In this document: positions 357 to 9,272 of the stretch, piece after piece
Layout: each line of letters starts with the position of its first letter
Numbering within the stretch: position 1 is the stretch's first letter
Virus record (IMG/VR): IMGVR_UViG_2695420685_000020
Length of the DNA stretch: 9,272 nucleotides
Strand: one strand, 5' to 3'
DNA from: a virus
Taxonomy: Duplodnaviria; Heunggongvirae; Uroviricota; Caudoviricetes
The notes under the pieces: generated by a model
What the model saw: the letters and a program-made list of their open reading frames with translations, nothing else
What the model was told of the DNA's origin: nothing
The model's database searches: none
Translations under genes and position numbers: made by a program

Positions 357-1376
357 TCAATAATCGGCTTTCAACACCACGCGGTAACGCGCCTTACCGT
401 CGCGCACATGCTGGATGGCGTCGTTAATTTTCGACATCGGGAACAGTTCGGTGGTCGGCGCAACCTTGCTGCGGGCGGCAAAACGCATCAGCTTACGCAG
501 CTCATAAGGCGTGCCGGTAGCAGAACCAGAGACGCTGCGATCGCCCGCAATTAACGTAAAGGCCGGAACAGACAGCGGCGTGAGAACCGCACCGACCGTA
601 TGGAAATTACCGCCATAGGTCAGCGCCTCAAAATAGGGCTGCCAGTCGAGGCTGACGTTGACGGTGTTGATAATGAGATCAAACTGCCCCGCCAGTGCTT
701 TCAGTGCCTGCGGATCGCGGCTATTCACCACTTTATCGGCACCCATCGCCAGCACTTCCTGCTCTTTCGCCGGATTAGAACTAAAGGCTGTCACCTCGCA
801 TCCCATTGCGTGCAGAAGTTTTATAGCGATATGCCCCAGCCCGCCAATACCAATTACCCCAACGCGGCTGGTAGCAGTGATATGGTGCATCAACAGTGGT
901 TTAAAGACCGTGATACCGCCGCACAACAGCGGCCCGGCGGACTCGATATCAATATTTTCTGGCAGTGGAATCACCCATTGCCAGTCCGCACGCAACTTCT
1001 CGGCAAAGCCACCGCGATTCATAATCGTCGGCACCGCACCTTGCTCGCAGTTGATCTGATTACCGCTAATACAGGCGTCGCAGTGACCACAGCTACGCGC
1101 CGTCCAGCCAATCCCGACACGCTGACCGACCTGCAAACCTTTATCCTGCGCGGCGCTCCCGAGTGCCACCACGCGCCCAATCACCTCATGCCCGGCAACC
1201 AGCGGATATTGTGAAAATCCCCATTCGTTATCGATCATCGACAGATCGGAATGGCAGATCCCGCAGTAATCCACCTGCACTTCAACATCTTGTGGCCTCA
1301 GCTCACCGGGATCGTACTCATAAACTTCCAGTTCTCCGCCCGCTTCTTTTGCGGCATAGCTTTTTATCATCGACAT
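357..1376 (-). CDS. ahr: Zn-dependent NADPH aldehyde reductase Ahr (YjgB), medium-chain dehydrogenase/reductase family, 339 aa
   Basis: ORF track 357-1418 minus. Likely true start is ATG at 1376 (MSMIKSY...) with AGAAGGA Shine-Dalgarno upstream. Zn/ADH motifs present: CGICHSD, GHEVIG, CGHCDAC, and Rossmann GIGGLGH. Stop TGA at 357-359, 3 nt from the convergent idnK stop. Confidence 0.9.
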
Positions 1377-1513
1377 TTTTTGGTCCTTCTCTGGTGTTGT
1401 TTGGGAAGTGTAGAGCATGGCAGGGCGGGGTGCCTGGAGTGTGACAAAGGTTACACATCGCTGTATGCAATGCTGAAAATTTCAGCACTTAGCGAGGTGC
1501 GAGCAAGCTGGCG

Positions 1514-1571: not shown

Positions 1572-1656
1572 GCCGAAGTGGCGAAATCGGTAGACGCAGT
1601 TGATTCAAAATCAACCGTAGAAATACGTGCCGGTTCGAGTCCGGCCTTCGGCACCA
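1572..1656 (+). tRNA. leuX: tRNA-Leu (anticodon CAA), 85 nt with long variable arm and encoded CCA
   Basis: GCCGAAGTGGCGAAATCGGTAGACGCAGTTGATTCAAAATCAACCGTAGAAATACGTGCCGGTTCGAGTCCGGCCTTCGGCACCA: acceptor stem GCCGAAG/CTTCGGC, anticodon loop TTCAAAA (CAA), T-arm GGTTCGAGTCC. Confidence 0.92.
1637..1656. other. Probable attL core region (3' end of leuX) of the integrated P4-like element; exact core boundaries not determinable
   Basis: Inference only: P4-family integrases integrate into the 3' end of tRNA genes and an integrase gene starts about 150 bp downstream. The matching attR copy would lie beyond the window. Confidence 0.3.
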
Positions 1657-1768
1657 TTATTACTTCCAAGTCCATCCGAGTAAGTCCGATTATCCATTAA
1701 AAATCAATACTTTCAGCGATTTCTACGATCCTGGATCGTCCGAGGTTGTCCGTTGAAATCCGGATGTC

Positions 1769-1791
1769 ATTGGGGGCATAATTGGGGGCAT
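1769..1791 (+). repeat. Tandem 11-bp direct repeat ATTGGGGGCAT x2 (1769-1779 and 1781-1791) just upstream of int
   Basis: Seen directly: cATTGGGGGCATaATTGGGGGCATc. Function unknown; position between the attachment region and the int start suggests an integrase arm-type or regulatory site. Confidence 0.5.
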
Positions 1792-1808
1792 CTTAACTTC
1801 GATTAGAA

Positions 1809-3095
1809 ATGTGCCCCCAAATGAAGCTCAATGCTAGACAAGTCGAGACAGCAAAGCCAAAAGACAAAAGCTACAAAATGGCCGATGGCGGCGGTTTGTA
1901 TCTCGAGGTTTCGGCCAAGGGGTCTAAATACTGGCGCATGAAATACCGACGCCCCTCTGACAAAAAAGAGGATCGCCTCGCTTTTGGTGTTTGGCCGACC
2001 GTGACGCTTGCTGAAGCTAGAAAGAGGAGGGATGAAGCGAAAAAGTTGCTGGCGCAAGGTATAGATCCAAAAGCAGTACAGAAAGAGGCTCAAGCAGAGA
2101 ATGCTGGTGCTTATAATTTTGAAACTATTGCTCGTGAATGGCACGCCAGCAACAAACGTTGGAGTGAGGATCATCGGGCGCGTGTTCTTCGCTATCTAGA
2201 GCTGTATATCTTTCCTTATATTGGCTTGTCTGATATCCGACAGCTTAAAACTAGCCATCTTTTAGCACCGATAAAAAAAGTTGATGCCAGTGGTAAGCAT
2301 GATGTGGCGCAGCGTCTTCAGCAACGTGTTACTGCTATTATGCGCTATGCCGTACAGAACGATTATATAGATTCAAATCCTGCAAGTGATATGGCTGGTG
2401 CGTTATCGACAGCTAAAACGCGGCACTATCCAGCTCTACCATCACATCGTTTTCCTGAGTTCTTAGCACGTCTTGCTGCATATCGTGGTCGTATGATGAC
2501 GAAAATTGCGGTTGAACTTTCTTTATTAACATTTGTTCGTTCCAGTGAGCTACGTTTCGCTCGCTGGGATGAATTCGACTTCGATAAATCTCTATGGCGT
2601 ATACCTGCAAAACGCGAGGAAATTAAAGGCGTACGTTACTCATATAGAGGAATGAAGATGAAGGAAGAGCATCTCGTTCCACTTAGTAGGCAAGCGATAG
2701 GGTTGTTGGAGCAGTTAAAGCAGATTAGTGGTGATAAGACGCTGCTTTTCCCTGGGGATCATGACGCAACTAAGGTTATGAGTGAGAACACTGTTAATAA
2801 TGCATTGCGTGCGATGGGCTATGATACGAAAACAGAAGTTTGCGGACATGGTTTTAGGACAATGGCACGTGGTGCGTTAGGAGAGTCAGGATTATGGAGT
2901 GATGATGCTATTGAACGCCAATTGAGCCATTCGGAACGTAATAATGTGCGAGCTGCGTATATTCATACGTCTGAGCATTTAGATGAGCGCAGACTAATGG
3001 TCCAATGGTGGGCAGATTATCTTTATTCCAACAGAGAGAAGCATATCTCTGCTTTTGAATTTGCAAATAAACTTAATAAAAATAGCCTTGATTAA
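1809..3095 (+). CDS. int: P4-family tyrosine integrase (site-specific recombinase), 428 aa (alternative ATG start at 1821)
   Basis: ORF track 1809-3095. N-terminal arm-binding-type region (AKPKDKSYKMADGGGLYLEV), C-terminal catalytic region with HGFRTMARGAL (H-x-x-R) and RAAYIH (catalytic Tyr). Located directly downstream of a tRNA gene. Confidence 0.9.
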   Translation: MCPQMKLNARQVETAKPKDKSYKMADGGGLYLEVSAKGSKYWRMKYRRPSDKKEDRLAFGVWPTVTLAEARKRRDEAKKLLAQGIDPKAVQKEAQAENAGAYNFETIAREWHASNKRWSEDHRARVLRYLELYIFPYIGLSDIRQLKTSHLLAPIKKVDASGKHDVAQRLQQRVTAIMRYAVQNDYIDSNPASDMAGALSTAKTRHYPALPSHRFPEFLARLAAYRGRMMTKIAVELSLLTFVRSSELRFARWDEFDFDKSLWRIPAKREEIKGVRYSYRGMKMKEEHLVPLSRQAIGLLEQLKQISGDKTLLFPGDHDATKVMSENTVNNALRAMGYDTKTEVCGHGFRTMARGALGESGLWSDDAIERQLSHSERNNVRAAYIHTSEHLDERRLMVQWWADYLYSNREKHISAFEFANKLNKNSLD

Positions 3096-3172
3096 GTCTC
3101 CGCTTAGTTTGAACTAGCCTTCATCAACAGCAATGCTTGTGTCTTTTTAACCTTCACTTAACACCTTCTTAG

Positions 3173-3213
3173 GCAATTATTCCATTGCTTTTAAAAACTA
3201 AGTATTCCTTAGT
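3173..3213. promoter_or_regulatory. Two palindromic operator candidates (C-boxes) upstream of the controller gene: GCAAT-N6-ATTGC (3173-3188) and CTAAG-N5-CTTAG (3198-3212)
   Basis: Seen directly: GCAATtattccATTGC and aCTAAGtattcCTTAGt. Both carry a TATTCC centre and sit 50-90 bp upstream of the C-gene ATG at 3263. From memory, CTAAG-N5-CTTAG is the reported C.EcoO109I binding site. Confidence 0.55.
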
Positions 3214-3262
3214 AATTTCGAGTGTAAAAAGTGCAAACCTACCTCCAAAAAGAGGATTTTCG

Positions 3263-3568
3263 ATGCTTCCAATTAGGTTAAAAAAAGCCCGATTGAATGC
3301 TGGGTTAACTCAAGAACAGCTGGGAATACTTGTTGGCATTGATGAATGCTCTGCCAGTGCTCGCATGAATCAATATGAGAAAGGTAAACATATGCCCGAT
3401 TTTTCACTTACTAAAAAAATCGCTGATTTATTAAATGTCCCTGTCTCATATTTTTACACACCCGAAGATGACTTGGCAGAAATTATTTTGTTGATTAATA
3501 AACTAGACAAAAAACAGCGGTTAATTTTATTAAAAAATTTATCAGATGGATTTATAAGTCATGAATAA
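3263..3568 (+). CDS. Controller (C) protein of an R-M system, XRE-family helix-turn-helix regulator, 101 aa
   Basis: ORF track 3185-3568 begins at a TTG; the internal ATG at 3263 has an AGAGGA Shine-Dalgarno 6 nt upstream (3251-3256). HTH segment LTQEQLGILVGIDECSASARMNQYEKGK. Stop overlaps the start of the next ORF, and palindromic operators lie upstream. Confidence 0.8.
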   Translation: MLPIRLKKARLNAGLTQEQLGILVGIDECSASARMNQYEKGKHMPDFSLTKKIADLLNVPVSYFYTPEDDLAEIILLINKLDKKQRLILLKNLSDGFISHE

Positions 3569-4379
3569 GCAAGAAGTTATACTTAAAGTGCAGGAGTGTG
3601 CTGCGTGGTGGATTTTGGAGAGACAAAGTAAACTAACAAAGTTAATGTCAGAAACAATGTCCATAAATCCGTTTATGACCCCTTTTATTTTTGATTATCA
3701 TTCCCTTAATGATTTTGATGAACTAGTTGAAGCAATAATTGCTAAGCATTTAATGACTGGGCATGATACTGGCTTTGGAAAATTGATTGATGAAAAAATA
3801 CTTCCTAGAGTGTTTGGTGCATATAAATTAGATAAAAGTTATAGAGCTGCCAACGAGCCTTTTATACACCCTTGCTTTGATGAAATAGATCATGTAATAC
3901 AAAGGGATGATGGTAGAATTGAGCTTTTATCTCTTAAGGCAGGGAAATGGACTATTCAATTGACGATGGCTGTCCAACTAAATAAAGCATTTCACGAAAT
4001 CATAAATAATTATCCTGGAGTGGCTGACAATATAGTGGTTGGGGTTTTTTATGGAAATAGCCATGGATTAACTGATAAGTATAGAATCTTACGAGGTATC
4101 AATACTGGTGCAAACCACAATGTGATTGATATTCGTGACAAAGTGCATGTATATGCTGGTAAAGAATTTTGGTCATGGCTTAACAATGGTGAGGCTGAAA
4201 CCCAGCATTGGGTACTTGAAGGTATAGAACGTGCTGTAAAAGAAGCAGATATAAAAGAAAAAAATAAAGATCTTATTGAAAAATTCAAAGAACATGTTGC
4301 AAAGAAGTACAATGAGCAAGTTCTAAATGCTGATGGCACAGCTCAATGGCACAAATTACTTGAAATGATTAATGAATAA
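3561..4379 (+). CDS. Type II restriction endonuclease candidate, 272 aa (possibly EcoO109I-type)
   Basis: ORF track 3561-4379. ATG overlaps the C-gene stop by 8 nt (ATGAATAA). Lies between a C-protein gene and a convergent m5C methyltransferase gene. Contains a plausible PD-(D/E)xK-like segment (FDEIDHV...IELLSLK). Length agrees with my recollection of R.EcoO109I (272 aa). No direct homology check was possible. Confidence 0.7.
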   Translation: MNKQEVILKVQECAAWWILERQSKLTKLMSETMSINPFMTPFIFDYHSLNDFDELVEAIIAKHLMTGHDTGFGKLIDEKILPRVFGAYKLDKSYRAANEPFIHPCFDEIDHVIQRDDGRIELLSLKAGKWTIQLTMAVQLNKAFHEIINNYPGVADNIVVGVFYGNSHGLTDKYRILRGINTGANHNVIDIRDKVHVYAGKEFWSWLNNGEAETQHWVLEGIERAVKEADIKEKNKDLIEKFKEHVAKKYNEQVLNADGTAQWHKLLEMINE

Positions 4380-4407
4380 AAAACTGGCCTAAGGGCCAGT
4401 TTTTTTT
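4378..4407. terminator. Bidirectional intrinsic terminator between the convergent R and M genes
   Basis: AAAAACTGGCC-taag-GGCCAGTTTTTTTT: 7-bp GC-rich stem (4383-4389 / 4394-4400), 4-nt loop, A-tract on the left and T-tract on the right, located in the 38-bp gap between the two stop codons. Confidence 0.65.
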
Positions 4408-4417
4408 ATGACTAATT

Positions 4418-5671
4418 CTAAACTTCTTCTTCAAGGTCGTAGTAAGAAACATCTCCACTATATGCTTGACCATTTTTAAAGAAAGATCTGGTTCTAATAT
4501 GCGGTCTAATATGGGTTTCTATATAATCTGGAGTTACTAAATCAGCAACCTTATTTTCTTGTATACGATGAAGAAGTTCCATAGCAGCTTCCCCTGCAAC
4601 TTTACCTAACCGGACAGGAACTGCGTTACCTATCTGTCTGAATTTTTCTGTAGTTGTACCTTCAAATTTCCAGTAATCAGGAAACTCTTGTATCGCGGCA
4701 GCTTCACCAACAGAAATAGCTCTAAGTTCAGTTGGGTGGCACATACTTGTTCCCGCATGATTTGGCATTGTTACTACTGTGGGTGAAGGAAACTGGAAAG
4801 ATAGTTTCCTCCAGTAAGCACTTCTTCCTCCTTTAAGATACCAGCTTTTTCCCATAGATTCTTTTTGCATTTCTTCTGGCATGCTTCTCCAGTTTCCGCC
4901 AGGTGGAACCATTGAAAGATATTTCAGTTTTCTTGGCGAAAAATTCATGACTTCTGGATATTTATCAACAAAACCGCTCTCTGGGCCAATTACATCCCCC
5001 AGCGTTTTGAATGGCGGAAGATTATCTTCTACTCTATTGCTGAATAAAGGGGAGGCGAAATTGGCTATCATTCCGAAGCGATTACCAATTAAAATAACAC
5101 GCTCCCTAATTTGTGGGGCTCCATAGTTGGCAGCATTAACTACAAAGCAATCCACATGATAACCTAGTTTATTGAATTCGTTAGCTACCCTTTTTATTAG
5201 AGAGCCTTTTTCGAAAGCAGATGCTGCGATTGTGCCTGATAGCTCCTTCTTTTTAGAAGCTGGAACTATAGACATTGATAATAAACCGCGTACGTTTTCC
5301 ATTACGAAAACTTTTGGGTTTAATTCTTTAATCATTCGAACATATTCGAAAATAAGCTGCCCTCTGGCATCTTCTAGCCCTAACCTATTTCCAAAAACAC
5401 TAAATGCTTGGCACGGTGGACCGCCAGCAACTAAATCTATTTCTTCTTTATCATTCACTCCGGCTAGTGCTAATAATTCAGAGCCAGTGCAGTCAACAAT
5501 ACTACCTTCGAATACAGCAAGATTTGGCTTATTAGTTTTAATTGTTTTTAGAGCTGCCTTATCTTGTTCAACGCAAGCTACGAGCTCAAAGCCAGCCTCT
5601 TCGAGACCTAAGTCTAACCCCATTGCGCCACTAAATAGCGAAATAAACTTTTTACTAGACAAAATAATCAC
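4418..5671 (-). CDS. DNA (cytosine-5) methyltransferase, Type II modification enzyme, about 414-417 aa (start codon uncertain: GTG at 5671 or TTG at 5662)
   Basis: ORF track 4418-5671 minus. Canonical m5C-MTase motifs: I FSGAMGLDLG, IV GGPPCQAFS, VI ENVRGL, VIII QIRERV, X GNAVPV. No ATG at the N-terminus; AGGTGA lies upstream of the TTG at 5662. Confidence 0.9.
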   Translation of the reverse strand: MIILSSKKFISLFSGAMGLDLGLEEAGFELVACVEQDKAALKTIKTNKPNLAVFEGSIVDCTGSELLALAGVNDKEEIDLVAGGPPCQAFSVFGNRLGLEDARGQLIFEYVRMIKELNPKVFVMENVRGLLSMSIVPASKKKELSGTIAASAFEKGSLIKRVANEFNKLGYHVDCFVVNAANYGAPQIRERVILIGNRFGMIANFASPLFSNRVEDNLPPFKTLGDVIGPESGFVDKYPEVMNFSPRKLKYLSMVPPGGNWRSMPEEMQKESMGKSWYLKGGRSAYWRKLSFQFPSPTVVTMPNHAGTSMCHPTELRAISVGEAAAIQEFPDYWKFEGTTTEKFRQIGNAVPVRLGKVAGEAAMELLHRIQENKVADLVTPDYIETHIRPHIRTRSFFKNGQAYSGDVSYYDLEEEV

Positions 5672-5804
5672 CTACATACTTAGCAGCCAAATACTAGGAT
5701 ATTGTAAAGGATTAACACTAATCCTCAACTCAAGTTTCAGGGATCTTAGCAGAATCTGCTTTGCAAGGATTCTATGAATGTAAATTAATAGATACTGGCG
5801 CGCA

Positions 5805-5823
5805 GTGCTTTCCCCGCCTCGCC
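5805..5823. other. cos site: 19-nt cohesive-end sequence of P2/P4-type phages (reverse complement of GGCGAGGCGGGGAAAGCAC)
   Basis: Exact 19/19 match at 5805-5823 (GTGCTTTCCCCGCCTCGCC) to the P2/186/P4 cohesive-end sequence as I recall it, located immediately downstream of psu where P4 carries cos. Confidence 0.7.
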
Positions 5824-5923
5824 CGCCCGCTTTGTGGGATGGTTTTAATGCAGTTGCGCTGACACGCTCAGGCCACGCCGGGCGTGGCGCGATCTGCAGA
5901 AAATGAGGCAGGAAAACGCATGC

Positions 5924-5956
5924 AAAGCCATGCACCTTATCGATGCATGGCTTTTT
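5924..5956 (+). terminator. Stem-loop with 3' T-run (AAAGCCATGCA-ccttatcga-TGCATGGCTTTTT); possible terminator or cos-region structure
   Basis: 11-bp perfect inverted repeat, 9-nt loop, followed by TT. Sits between cos and the psu stop. Function and strand uncertain. Confidence 0.3.
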
Positions 5957-5987
5957 CCAGTAAAAACGGGCGGATTTTCGGGGAATT

Positions 5988-6560
5988 TTACACAGACTGA
6001 CGTGATGCCAGTTGCGCACTTTTACGCGAAAAAATCATGTTCTGCGCAGGGGTGAATTTTTCACGGCTGTCATCCACCGAAGCCGCGTCAGGCCTGAATC
6101 CGATGGTCGTAAAAATGTCGCTATCCTGTGCGGAATAATTAATTTTTTCCCCCTTCGCAAGCCAGGAAAGAAGGGCTTCACGCAGGGCATCTGTGGCACG
6201 CTGTATGGCACAGTTTCGGGCAATGGCCGTCAGCTCACTGTAGCCCATCAGCTCCGGTGCCAGTGCCGCCGCCAGTGCTGTGCCGTGCTGCTGCATAAAA
6301 TCATTCAGCCGGTCGCGGATGCTGATGTGCTGAACGGCTTCATGCGAACGAATATAACGACCGGCGGTCTGATTCACCTGCCATTTTCTGACTTCGATAA
6401 TATTGCGTAATTCGTCAAGGCGACTGACGTTTCTGCCTTCTCCTGACAGAAGCCGCAGATATTCCTGTTCGGCCGCTGCCAGCTCATTTTTGCGTTGCAG
6501 CCATGCTGCTTTGTTATTCTGGCAGACCTCAAAAGCCTGCTGTAATGACATTGTGGTCAC
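5988..6560 (-). CDS. psu: Psu (polarity suppression / Rho-antagonist capsid decoration protein) of P4-type satellites, 190 aa with GTG start (alternative ATG at 6551)
   Basis: ORF track 5988-6560 minus. N-terminus xTTMSLQQAFEVCQNNKAAWLQRKNELAAAEQEYLRL closely resembles P4 Psu as I recall it (same 190-aa length). AGGAGA Shine-Dalgarno 7 nt upstream of the GTG. Confidence 0.88.
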   Translation of the reverse strand: MTTMSLQQAFEVCQNNKAAWLQRKNELAAAEQEYLRLLSGEGRNVSRLDELRNIIEVRKWQVNQTAGRYIRSHEAVQHISIRDRLNDFMQQHGTALAAALAPELMGYSELTAIARNCAIQRATDALREALLSWLAKGEKINYSAQDSDIFTTIGFRPDAASVDDSREKFTPAQNMIFSRKSAQLASRQSV

Positions 6561-6574
6561 ACCCCGTCTCCTGA

Positions 6575-6820
6575 TTAATGGTTGAATGGTGAGCTGTAAC
6601 AGCCTTTAACTTTTCGGACAACAGCCGGTGCTGTGCTTGCCGGTGCTGGTTTTTCCTCCGTGACCGGAGAACGAATCACGGCACAAATTGACTCATGCGT
6701 TTTAAATGTCGCCGAACAGTAAATATTCTGGCACTGCAGATAACTTTCTTTGACATTGTCACTCACATACCGGCTGGTGCGGGTATGCGCTGAATGACGA
6801 CAGAAAGGGCAGCGCATCAT
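6575..6820 (-). CDS. Ogr/Delta-family zinc-finger late-gene transcriptional activator, 81 aa, single domain
   Basis: ORF track 6575-6877; true start likely ATG at 6820 (MMRCPFCRHSAHTRTSRY...), overlapping the sid stop as ATGA. Cys4 pattern CPFC...CQNIYC as in P2 Ogr (MFHCPLCQHAAHARTSRY...). Confidence 0.85.
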   Translation of the reverse strand: MMRCPFCRHSAHTRTSRYVSDNVKESYLQCQNIYCSATFKTHESICAVIRSPVTEEKPAPASTAPAVVRKVKGCYSSPFNH

Positions 6821-7551
6821 GACAGCAGTCCTCTGGCCTTCAGCTCTGCTCCCTGCTGGTCCATTTTGTCCTGCCACACCTTGCGCTGTGCCGGTGTGCC
6901 TGCCACCTCATAATCCATGTGCGGGAGTGTTGCCGCTGACAGTCCGGCCAGCCGGAGAACCGGCTCACCGCTGAGGCTGATTTGCATCTGTTTAATTTTC
7001 TGCTCCAGCGATGATTTCACCTGCTGCATGACAGCCCTTTCCGGTGCGACGTAACCCTGATGGCCGGTGGTGTTGGCGAGCGGATTTTCCTGTACCAGAA
7101 TGCTCAGATGCATTGCCCGGACAAGCGCCTCACAGGTTTCATTCAGGGCGTGTTCCAGCTCATGCTCTGCATACAGACTCAGAAGGTGATGATGTGCCTT
7201 CCGGTAGGCGGTGGCCGTGCTGTCACACGCCCCTTTCAGGCGTTCGCGTTCAAAATTCAGCACCACGGCCAGATTGTCATATTCCTGTACCAGCTCCCGG
7301 CGTGCCACGCGCTCAATGTGGCGCTGTTTCAGCTCGTCGCTCAGGACACCACCGGCTGCACGAAAGGCCGTGCGCCAGTCGTCAGCGTCGTTTCCGTCGG
7401 CTTGCGCCAGCGCATTTTTTTCCTGCTCTGCCCGTTCAATGGCCGTGACGGTCTCATCCATCAGGCGGGCGTTCTCAAGATGAGCGACTCTGGCCTTTTC
7501 CAGTTGTGCCAGCGCGGGTTGCAGATATTCAGGGATGGTGTTGTCAGACAT
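6817..7551 (-). CDS. sid: Sid (capsid size determination, external scaffold) protein of P4-type satellites, 244 aa
   Basis: ORF track 6817-7569. ATG at 7551 (MSDNTIPEYLQPALAQLEKAR...) has a GAGGA Shine-Dalgarno 8 nt upstream and gives 244 aa, the length I recall for P4 Sid. Gene order sid-delta-psu matches P4. Confidence 0.85.
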   Translation of the reverse strand: MSDNTIPEYLQPALAQLEKARVAHLENARLMDETVTAIERAEQEKNALAQADGNDADDWRTAFRAAGGVLSDELKQRHIERVARRELVQEYDNLAVVLNFERERLKGACDSTATAYRKAHHHLLSLYAEHELEHALNETCEALVRAMHLSILVQENPLANTTGHQGYVAPERAVMQQVKSSLEQKIKQMQISLSGEPVLRLAGLSAATLPHMDYEVAGTPAQRKVWQDKMDQQGAELKARGLLS

Positions 7552-8102: not shown

Positions 8103-8369
8103 ATGCAAGCTGTTTTTTCTTCCCCGTCTCCCGCCCCTGTGACGCCACTGATGCCGCTGCCGGACATCACACAGGAGCGTTTTCTACGTCTTCCGGAAGT
8201 GATGCACCTGTGCGGCCTGTCACGCTCGACCATCTACGAACTCATCCGTAAGGGGGAATTTCCGCCGCAGGTGAGTCTTGGCGGTAAAAATGTGGCCTGG
8301 CTGCACTCTGAAGTCACCGCATGGATGGCCGGGCGCATTGCCGGACGCAAACGGGGGTACGACGCATGA
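8103..8369 (+). CDS. vis: Vis/AlpA-family small DNA-binding regulator (P4 Vis-like), 88 aa
   Basis: ORF track 8103-8369. ATG with GAGGT 7 nt upstream. AlpA-type HTH segment [45 protein letters not shown]. Length equals P4 orf88 (vis) as I recall it. Confidence 0.8.
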
Positions 8370-8404: not shown

Positions 8405-8434
8405 TTGCCTTTTTCCGGCATTTGCGGATATAGT
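8405..8434 (+). promoter_or_regulatory. Candidate sigma70 promoter (TTGCCT-N18-TATAGT) for the immunity/left operon (PLE-like)
   Basis: -35 TTGCCT at 8405-8410 and -10 TATAGT at 8429-8434, just downstream of vis and upstream of the complementary-box leader. Confidence 0.35.
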
Positions 8435-8465
8435 TTTTCCGCTGCCGCAAAATCGGCAGCCGGGC

Positions 8466-8757
8466 GTGAGAACCCGAGCAATTCACAGGCGACATATGAC
8501 GCGCCACGCGTCTTTTTTTGTGTCGCAATCAATGCCACAGAGCGCCAGATTATGGTGTGGTGTGTGGTCAGTCGTGCAGATGGCATTCCGTGCATCCTGC
8601 CCGCGTCCGCTCATTATGCCGCAGAGTCAATGGTAGCTCAGGCGGGGCAGCCTCCGGGCTGGCCGGTATCCTGTGAAGCCGGTATTCTCACCCCCGTCTG
8701 GGCTATCGCCATCGAGCGTGAGAACTCCGGCGATAGCGTTATTTGCTATTCACAGGA
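8466..8757 (+). ncRNA. Immunity-type leader with CI/c4-like antisense boxes: box A 8466-8489, complementary box B 8669-8691, box C 8718-8757 (overlaps the RBS of the downstream small ORF); RNA boundaries unknown
   Basis: GTGAGAA...TTCACAGG occurs at 8466-8489 and at 8718-8757. Its reverse complement CCTGTGAA...TTCTCAC occurs between them at 8670-8691. Box C ends in AGGAGG, the Shine-Dalgarno of the ORF starting at 8768. Confidence 0.35.
8498..8519 (+). terminator. Intrinsic terminator: GACGCG-cca-CGCGTC followed by T7
   Basis: 6-bp GC stem at 8498-8503 / 8507-8512 with T-run at 8513-8519, about 60-80 nt downstream of the candidate promoter. Confidence 0.5.
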
Positions 8758-8767
8758 GGCTGCCATC

Positions 8768-8965
8768 ATGGCTACAACCCTTACCCCCTCACACCCTGAA
8801 TTTGTCTTTGTGTTTGCGGCTGTCCGTCGCGCAGACCGTCATCCCCGTATCTGTATGCTTCGCACCGTCGCCGGTGATGAACGCAGTGCCCGCCGTTCCC
8901 TTGTCCGTGACTATGTGCTCTCCCTTGCTGCCCGTCTGCCGGTGGTGGAGGTGTCCCGTGCGTAA
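8768..8965 (+). CDS. Small Icd/Kil-like protein (65 aa), first gene after the immunity leader
   Basis: ATG at 8768 with AGGAGG 8 nt upstream ([65 protein letters not shown]). It is the C-terminal part of track ORF 8321-8965, whose upstream portion is the non-coding leader. Family assignment is by position and recollection of P4-like annotations only. Confidence 0.55.
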
Positions 8966-9245
8966 TAAAAAAGCCCCTCAGACCGTCTCAGCACGTCATG
9001 ACGCCCGTGAACACCTCAGCATTGAGGCTTACCATAAGCTCAACCGCGCCAGCGCCGTATCCCAGTTTGTTGGGGGTGATTTGATTCACCGTGAACTCTC
9101 CGGCCTGCATCAGCTCTACATTCCGCATATTTTCAGTTACCTGAATGAAGATATTGATTTTGTGCTGAATGAACTGAAAGCCAAAGGCCTGTGCCGCGAT
9201 TTTCTCGCCCAGCAGAAAGACCGGGGAGACAGGACGCATGTTTGA
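8958..9245 (+). CDS. Hypothetical protein (95 aa) with GTG start overlapping the preceding stop (GTGCGTAA)
   Basis: Open frame to TGA at 9243-9245 with no in-frame ATG. GTG at 8958 is preceded by GGAGGT (8947-8952) at 5-nt spacing. Corresponds to the 3' part of track ORF 8673-9245. Confidence 0.45.
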
Positions 9246-9272
9246 TTTTCCCCAGCCCGGTGAGATTTACCG
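9238..9272 (+). CDS. 5' end of a further ORF ([11 protein letters not shown]...), partial, continues past the right edge
   Basis: ATG at 9238 overlaps the preceding TGA (ATGTTTGA), with GGGGAGA/AGGA upstream. Only 11 codons are visible. Confidence 0.25.
   Translation, partial: MFDFPQPGEIY

Follow-up and report, generated by a model that had tools for sequence, protein, structure and literature searches.

Positions 5805–5823 of the analyzed stretch of DNA (9,272 nt, here referred to as the window) are very probably the cos site of a P4-like satellite that has inserted at tRNA-Leu(CAA) (leuX, beside ahr), and the EcoO109I restriction-modification (R-M) system next to it would be an ordinary cargo that moves with the element. 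Sequence comparison supports the original prediction, which had read this 19-mer as a P2-family cos through which, if functional, the satellite and its R-M cargo could be packaged. The R-M system would therefore reside on a helper-dependent mobile element and could spread with it between E. coli strains. The relevance lies in the movement of defence systems, a point which was made for EcoO109I in 1999 and generalised in 2022. What the window adds is limited to a clean cargo/core mosaic with a breakpoint that could be mapped to within ~40 bp at cos.

The plus strand reads GTGCTTTCCCCGCCTCGCC at positions 5805–5823. Its reverse complement, the cohesive-end 19-mer on the minus strand, is exactly GGCGAGGCGGGGAAAGCAC. 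This sequence is identical to bases 1–19 of P4 (NC_001609 / X51522), the left end of that genome, and to the P2 features annotated as 'cosL; left cohesive end' and 'cosR' (NC_001895). The proposal of an exact P2/P4-type 19-nt cos was confirmed by these identities, and the reverse complement of the P2-family cohesive end named there proved to be correct letter for letter. The cos of phage 186 differs from the 19-mer of the window at 2 of the 19 positions (GGCGTGGCGGGGAAAGCAT). Allowing up to 3 mismatches, GTGCTTTCCCCGCCTCGCC had no second match in the 9272-nt window (0.01 expected in shuffles), and the chance expectation for an exact 19-mer in 2 x 9272 positions is ~7e-8. The flanking genes are likewise those named before: a C5-methyltransferase gene (4418–5671, minus strand) at a distance of 133 bp and psu (5988–6560, minus strand) at a distance of 164 bp.

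Based on the ends of the P4 and P2 records and on the annotation of phage 186 ('top strand cut at 5' end and bottom strand cut at 3' end'), staggered nicks would be placed between 5804 and 5805 on the plus strand and between 5823 and 5824 on the minus strand.

The 19-mer is embedded in a conserved block of ~60 bp (5798–5857, minus strand), which was delimited by alignment with P4, P2 and 186 and by column conservation. The alignment to the P2 and P4 cos regions, suggested earlier as a check, gave an identical 19-mer and 95% identity of the block to P2 records over 60 bp (~57/60; blastn against phage records). When the circularised cos junctions were aligned, P4, P2, 186 and the window shared CTGCATTAAAACC..CCC..AAAGCGGGCG, followed by the 19-mer and by TGCGCGC, the latter on the left-end side and common to P2, 186 and the window. 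A conserved core of ~55 bp around the 19-mer, shared by P2 and P4, is described in passages of PMC2231350 and PMC9594776 that cite Ziermann & Calendar 1990. Outside the block the flanks of P2 (portal gene Q and old) are unrelated to those of the window.

To describe the natural variation of the site, IMG/VR was scanned for exact matches to the 19-mer. At least 120 loci were found, and 119 of those listed had enough flanking sequence to be analyzed. According to Psu or portal-protein matches, 93 of these 119 listed loci were P2-like and 19 were P4-like. The cos block from -35 to +26 was conserved across the 119 listed loci, and among the matches listed the P2-like as well as the P4-like class kept ~35 bp next to the 19-mer toward the right end and 7 bp toward the left end. 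The 19 listed P4-like loci had the whole 140 bp toward psu conserved. On the side opposite to psu their conservation collapsed ~9 bp past the 19-mer, which marks the cargo boundary. The window follows the P4-like pattern exactly, since its cargo starts ~8 bp past the 19-mer; the nonessential cargo of P4 itself also begins a few bases past it.

In the columns conserved in the 112 listed P2-like and P4-like loci the window matched at all but three positions, which are naturally variable. Compared with P4, the right flank carries three substitutions (-17, -16 and -12; CCATCCCAC vs CCGCCCCGC), each of which occurs in natural P2-like or P4-like cos sites. The exact combination CCATCCCAC was absent among the 119 sampled viral loci of IMG/VR, and it is present in identical form in a P4-like element of E. 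coli O145:H28 RM12761. A small hairpin that is fully paired in P4 loses a base pair through one of the three substitutions. Additionally, the base just left of the 19-mer is a C in P4 and a T in the window, as in P2. A terminator scan gave a single match, a hairpin of 5 bp that overlaps the cos block, at a frequency expected by chance.

Beyond the block, the psu side of the window corresponds to the right end of P4. By blastn against phage records, positions 5824–6100 aligned to the last 277 bases of P4 and ended at the P4 terminus. A direct comparison of 5824–6545 with P4 11624–10903 gave 96.7% identity over 722 bp, with P4 base 11624, where the record ends, at window position 5824. By this alignment the 19-mer is directly adjoined by the right end of P4. 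From the psu stop codon to the 19-mer there are 164 bp in the window as in P4. The P4 cos also has the 19-mer, its orientation and the post-psu hairpin in common with the window.

The remaining gene content is that of a P4-like satellite in its chromosomal setting. The flank is represented by ahr (357–1418, minus strand), an ORF whose homologue is annotated as ahr beside the near-identical E. coli element of TUM9757 (L002). The integration target, tRNA-Leu(CAA) (1572–1656, plus strand), was identified by ARAGORN and Rfam. Its last 20 nt (1637–1656, GAGTCCGGCCTTCGGCACCA) are exactly the attP core of P4 (P4 4078–4097) and are therefore assigned as attL. Of the duplicated att core this is the copy within the window, attR being located past 9272. 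A P4-type tyrosine integrase gene, int, follows at 1809–3095 (plus strand; Pfam Arm-DNA-bind_3, Phage_int_M and Phage_integrase), and its product is 91% identical to P4 Int over residues 1–429.

On the other side of the cargo and of cos, psu (Pfam Psu, 1e-87) codes for the polarity suppression and capsid decoration protein, with 94.7% identity to P4 Psu over 190/190 aa. It is followed by a gene for a short, single-domain Ogr/Delta transactivator of 81 aa (6575–6820, minus strand; Pfam Ogr_Delta, 2e-18), which stands in place of the two-domain delta of 166 aa found in P4. The capsid size determination gene sid (6817–7551, minus strand) is uninterrupted, and its full-length tblastn match to P4 Sid had 97.5% identity over 244/244 aa. 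Furthermore, alpA/vis (P4 ORF88), an excisionase-regulator gene, is located at 8103–8369 (plus strand; Pfam Phage_AlpA, 98.9% identity to P4 ORF88), and epsilon, which encodes the helper derepression protein, at 8958–9245 (plus strand; Pfam Derepression, 98.9% identity to P4 epsilon over 95/95 aa).

Between alpA and epsilon the P4 immunity region (8428–8713, plus strand) is intact. The c4-a1b1 target (8428–8480), isrK (8441–8518) and the C4/CI antisense RNA (8626–8713), all on the plus strand, were each present as Rfam matches above the gathering thresholds.

P4-like satellites have been defined by seven core components, namely int, psu, delta, sid, alpA, epsilon as well as alpha (PMC8628076). 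Six of the seven (int, psu, delta, sid, alpA and epsilon) were found in the window, in conserved order and all intact. Position 9272 falls inside the element, and alpha, crr and attR lie past it. In the close relatives examined alpha and an att repeat are present, and nine of the ten with the same cargo carry a second copy of the att core, with the exception of L134. The distance from att to att was 11.71–11.72 kb in eight relatives and 11.67 kb in a degraded one (L136); P4 is 11.62 kb long. The delta region of the window is ~314 bp shorter than in those relatives, from which a size of ~11.4 kb is extrapolated; how intact the element is as a whole, and how long it really is, are likewise extrapolated from the relatives. 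Of 5,426 complete E. coli genomes, 68 contained at least 80% of the window, and O157:H7 strains were numerous among them.

The DNA of the short delta was identical in 9 listed E. coli genomes and covered by at least 80% in 159 genomes, and the gene is annotated in the RM12761 element. This short form occurs commonly in E. coli. A segment of 270 bp (6546–6815) could be aligned neither to P4 nor to the other EcoO109I-bearing elements.

The cargo itself is, by sequence, a complete EcoO109I type II R-M system (C, R and M; 3263–5671). The first gene (3263–3568, plus strand, with the ORF open from 3185) codes for an HTH controller protein of the C.EcoO109I type (Pfam HTH_19/HTH_3/HTH_31). It overlaps the start of the gene for the restriction endonuclease R.EcoO109I (3561–4379, plus strand; Pfam RE_EcoO109I), which is identical in 272/272 residues to the crystallised endonuclease 'EcoO109IR' (PDB 1WTD). 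The gene for M.EcoO109I, a C5 cytosine DNA methyltransferase (4418–5671, minus strand; Pfam DNA_methylase, 7e-65), is convergent to R. The exact M protein was found in 1104 blocks of a public assembly collection, and 9/9 of the places listed were P4-like satellites at the same chromosomal locus.

The low Pfam score (25.8 bits) had suggested that the endonuclease was a distant relative of EcoO109I, a reading which was ruled out by the identity to 1WTD. In many E. coli records of relatives the endonuclease is annotated with 244 aa and not with 272 aa. A truncation was rejected, as tblastn gave 100% over the full length; with the full-length ORF entirely intact, the shorter annotation represents a difference in start-codon calling. 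Damaged copies are present in the relatives L135 and L136.

Upstream of the methyltransferase gene, a consensus scan returned one promoter-like site (5701–5728, minus strand; 0.6 expected by chance). Its position is left of 5797, the point at which homology to other P4-like elements stops, and it may perhaps belong to the cargo module.

EcoO109I recognizes RG^GNCCY. No such site is present in the 9.3-kb window, where 3–6 would be expected according to Markov models, or in the 11.6-kb P4 genome (6–10 expected). Self-avoidance by a carrier of EcoO109I was rejected as an explanation because P4, which lacks the system, has no sites either. The sequence was also depleted in the chromosomal flanks, and the mean in 1.2 Mb of P2/P4-like loci was 0.075 sites per kb. 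The depletion is general, and the scarcity is thus not specific to EcoO109I carriers.

The site of insertion of this cargo is known. A psu-int defence hotspot has been reported by Rousset et al. 2022, de Sousa & Rocha 2021 and PMC13586616 (2026), and it directly adjoins cos (Rousset et al. 2022, PMC9122126). Its occupants, according to a passage of Rousset et al. 2022 (PMC9122126), include 'the type-II RM system EcoO109I (Kita et al., 1999)', and the cassette HTH_19/HTH_31 + RE_EcoO109I + DNA_methylase is listed ~70 times in Table S1A of that work. The protein accessions of this cassette are those of the TUM9757 element, including WP_000936844, the counterpart of the HTH controller in the window. 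As far as PMC9122126 describes it in citing that study, the P4-like prophage of Kita et al. 1999 (J Bacteriol 181:6822) carries the same R-M system in the same int-psu position. A cos-adjoining hotspot filled by EcoO109I is therefore an arrangement already published, and compared with the P4 psu-int hotspot of Rousset et al. 2022 the window is one more instance without a difference in kind.

Some differences in detail were found. P4 carries gop, beta and cII where the window has EcoO109I, and the psu-side cos flank and delta differ from those of the window in every EcoO109I-bearing element retrieved. The EcoO109I element studied by Kita and colleagues is reportedly located at leuX as well, and its sid is said to be interrupted by IS21, in contrast to the intact sid of the window.

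According to the mechanism that we propose, Int and Vis would excise the element as a circle, and the terminase of a P2-type helper would recognize the ~60-bp cos block on the closed circle. The nicks would be set 19 nt apart, and a linear genome of ~11.4 kb would enter small capsids remodelled by Sid. The mature left end would be at 5823, reading leftward through M, R, C and int, and the mature right end at 5824, just after psu. With a left end that reads straight into the accessory genes, the R-M genes would represent the left-terminal accessory genes of the satellite. Cleavage, packaging and transduction, as well as the integrity of the element past 9272, are steps that we infer.

The P2/P4 system provides the model for this sequence of events. 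P4 shares its core cos with P2 because it uses the P2 terminase (PMC9122126), which packages P4 via the common site (PMC9122126, PMC2231350). P4 circles are cut at a cos of 55 bp to yield 19-nt ends, and plasmids with the P4 cos are packaged; the substrate of packaging is the excised closed circle (PMC2231350). The satellite excises, replicates as a circle and is then packaged into small capsids (PMC9122126, PMC2231350).

The earlier suggestion that the R-M cargo, 130 bp away from cos, moves with the satellite is supported, with a refinement. The distance is 133 bp and the genes lie inside the element; nearness to cos does not hold as the reason. The genes would travel because they are enclosed in the att-bounded element, and not because they are near cos. 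Since a complete R-M system occupies the known cos/psu-int defence hotspot, it would be ordinary satellite cargo which moves with the genome.

The only serious rival to a functional cos is a relic, meaning a genuine cos in a satellite that can no longer be mobilised, whether through damage to alpha, crr or attR past the end of the window, through a sub-optimal flank or for want of a compatible helper. Vertical inheritance would then be the only route left to the R-M system. We consider this unlikely. It draws on the location of alpha and attR outside the window and on the existence of degraded relatives, L136 with fragmented alpha, sid, psu and int and the RM12761 element (L007) with an integrase interrupted by IS3. 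On the other hand, the P4 genes within the window are all of full length, with 91–100% identity, the immunity RNAs are intact and attL is perfect. The three substitutions of the right flank compared with P4 could point to a sub-optimal site, but the same variant is unchanged in RM12761, an independent element at another tRNA with another cargo. Furthermore, the mosaic structure described below shows recent exchange between satellite lineages.

That the 19-mer is a chance match, or the cos of a P2-like helper prophage and not of a satellite, has a negligible probability in our view. P2-like phages do carry the same 19-mer, and nothing else speaks in favour of either possibility. The number of exact matches expected is ~1e-7 (0.01 in shuffles with 3 mismatches). 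The site is bordered by psu on one side and by int with the cargo on the other, and not by portal gene Q or an old-type P2 cargo; moreover, the flank matches the right end of P4 over 722 bp. Both possibilities were excluded by the match statistics, the P4-end alignment and the gene content, and a satellite cos is the reading retained here.

Comparison with individual relatives shows that the satellite is a recombinant, with int, EcoO109I and the 19-mer matching one lineage and the cos block, psu and the short delta matching another. Relative to the TUM9757 element, only 7 differences were found in the ~4.2 kb of window 1657–5823 (~99.9%), whereas 13 differences fall within 5835–5901 and delta cannot be aligned. 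The RM12761 element, which is located at tRNA-Sec and carries GapS4a as cargo, has the complementary pattern: homology begins at 5797, with 1 mismatch up to ~6750. Across genomes, at least four different cos flanks were found on the psu side of the EcoO109I module, and the junction was inside the conserved block. An exact search of IMG/VR with the 61-nt cargo/cos junction gave no match, and among complete E. coli genomes an identical junction was absent as well, the best match having 96.3%.

How the junction arose is more difficult to determine. The joining of terminase-cut cohesive ends from two co-resident or co-infecting satellites is a tentative explanation, and we regard it as rather doubtful; as a mechanism of cargo swapping it was only speculated by Rousset et al. 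2022. If true, junctions resolved to the base pair would be a genomic signature of cargo swapping mediated by cos ends. The alternative is ordinary homologous recombination within the conserved block of ~30–60 bp. Rapid cargo swapping in P4-like elements has been reported (PMC9122126, PMC13586616). The mosaic fits these reports, and it would be compatible with cos-end joining and homologous recombination alike.

The region between cos and psu contains further repeats. At 5872–5888 there is an inverted repeat whose arms measure 8 bp (GCCACGCC g GGCGTGGC). At this position P4 has ACCGCGCC-6 nt-GGCGCGGT, with arm sequences that differ from those of the window, so the repeat is kept despite changed arms. 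In 13 of the 19 listed P4-like loci an inverted repeat with arms of at least 6 bp was present ~50–65 bp from the 19-mer, which is rare in shuffles, and the arms vary in sequence; P2 lacks it. A hairpin with an 11-bp stem (AAAGCCATGCA ... TGCATGGCTTT) was read directly from the sequence at 5924–5954, just downstream of psu, and the same sequence occurs in P4. It is likely the terminator of the sid-delta-psu operon.

Finally, on the right-end side of cos, ATGCA (TGCAT on the cos-sense strand) is present in four copies (window 5847–5851 and 5920–5948). P2-like phages conserve in part a GGTGCATG...TTGCAT box located ~95–113 bp from the 19-mer. As these phages keep the box despite unrelated flanking genes, it is a candidate terminase recognition element.
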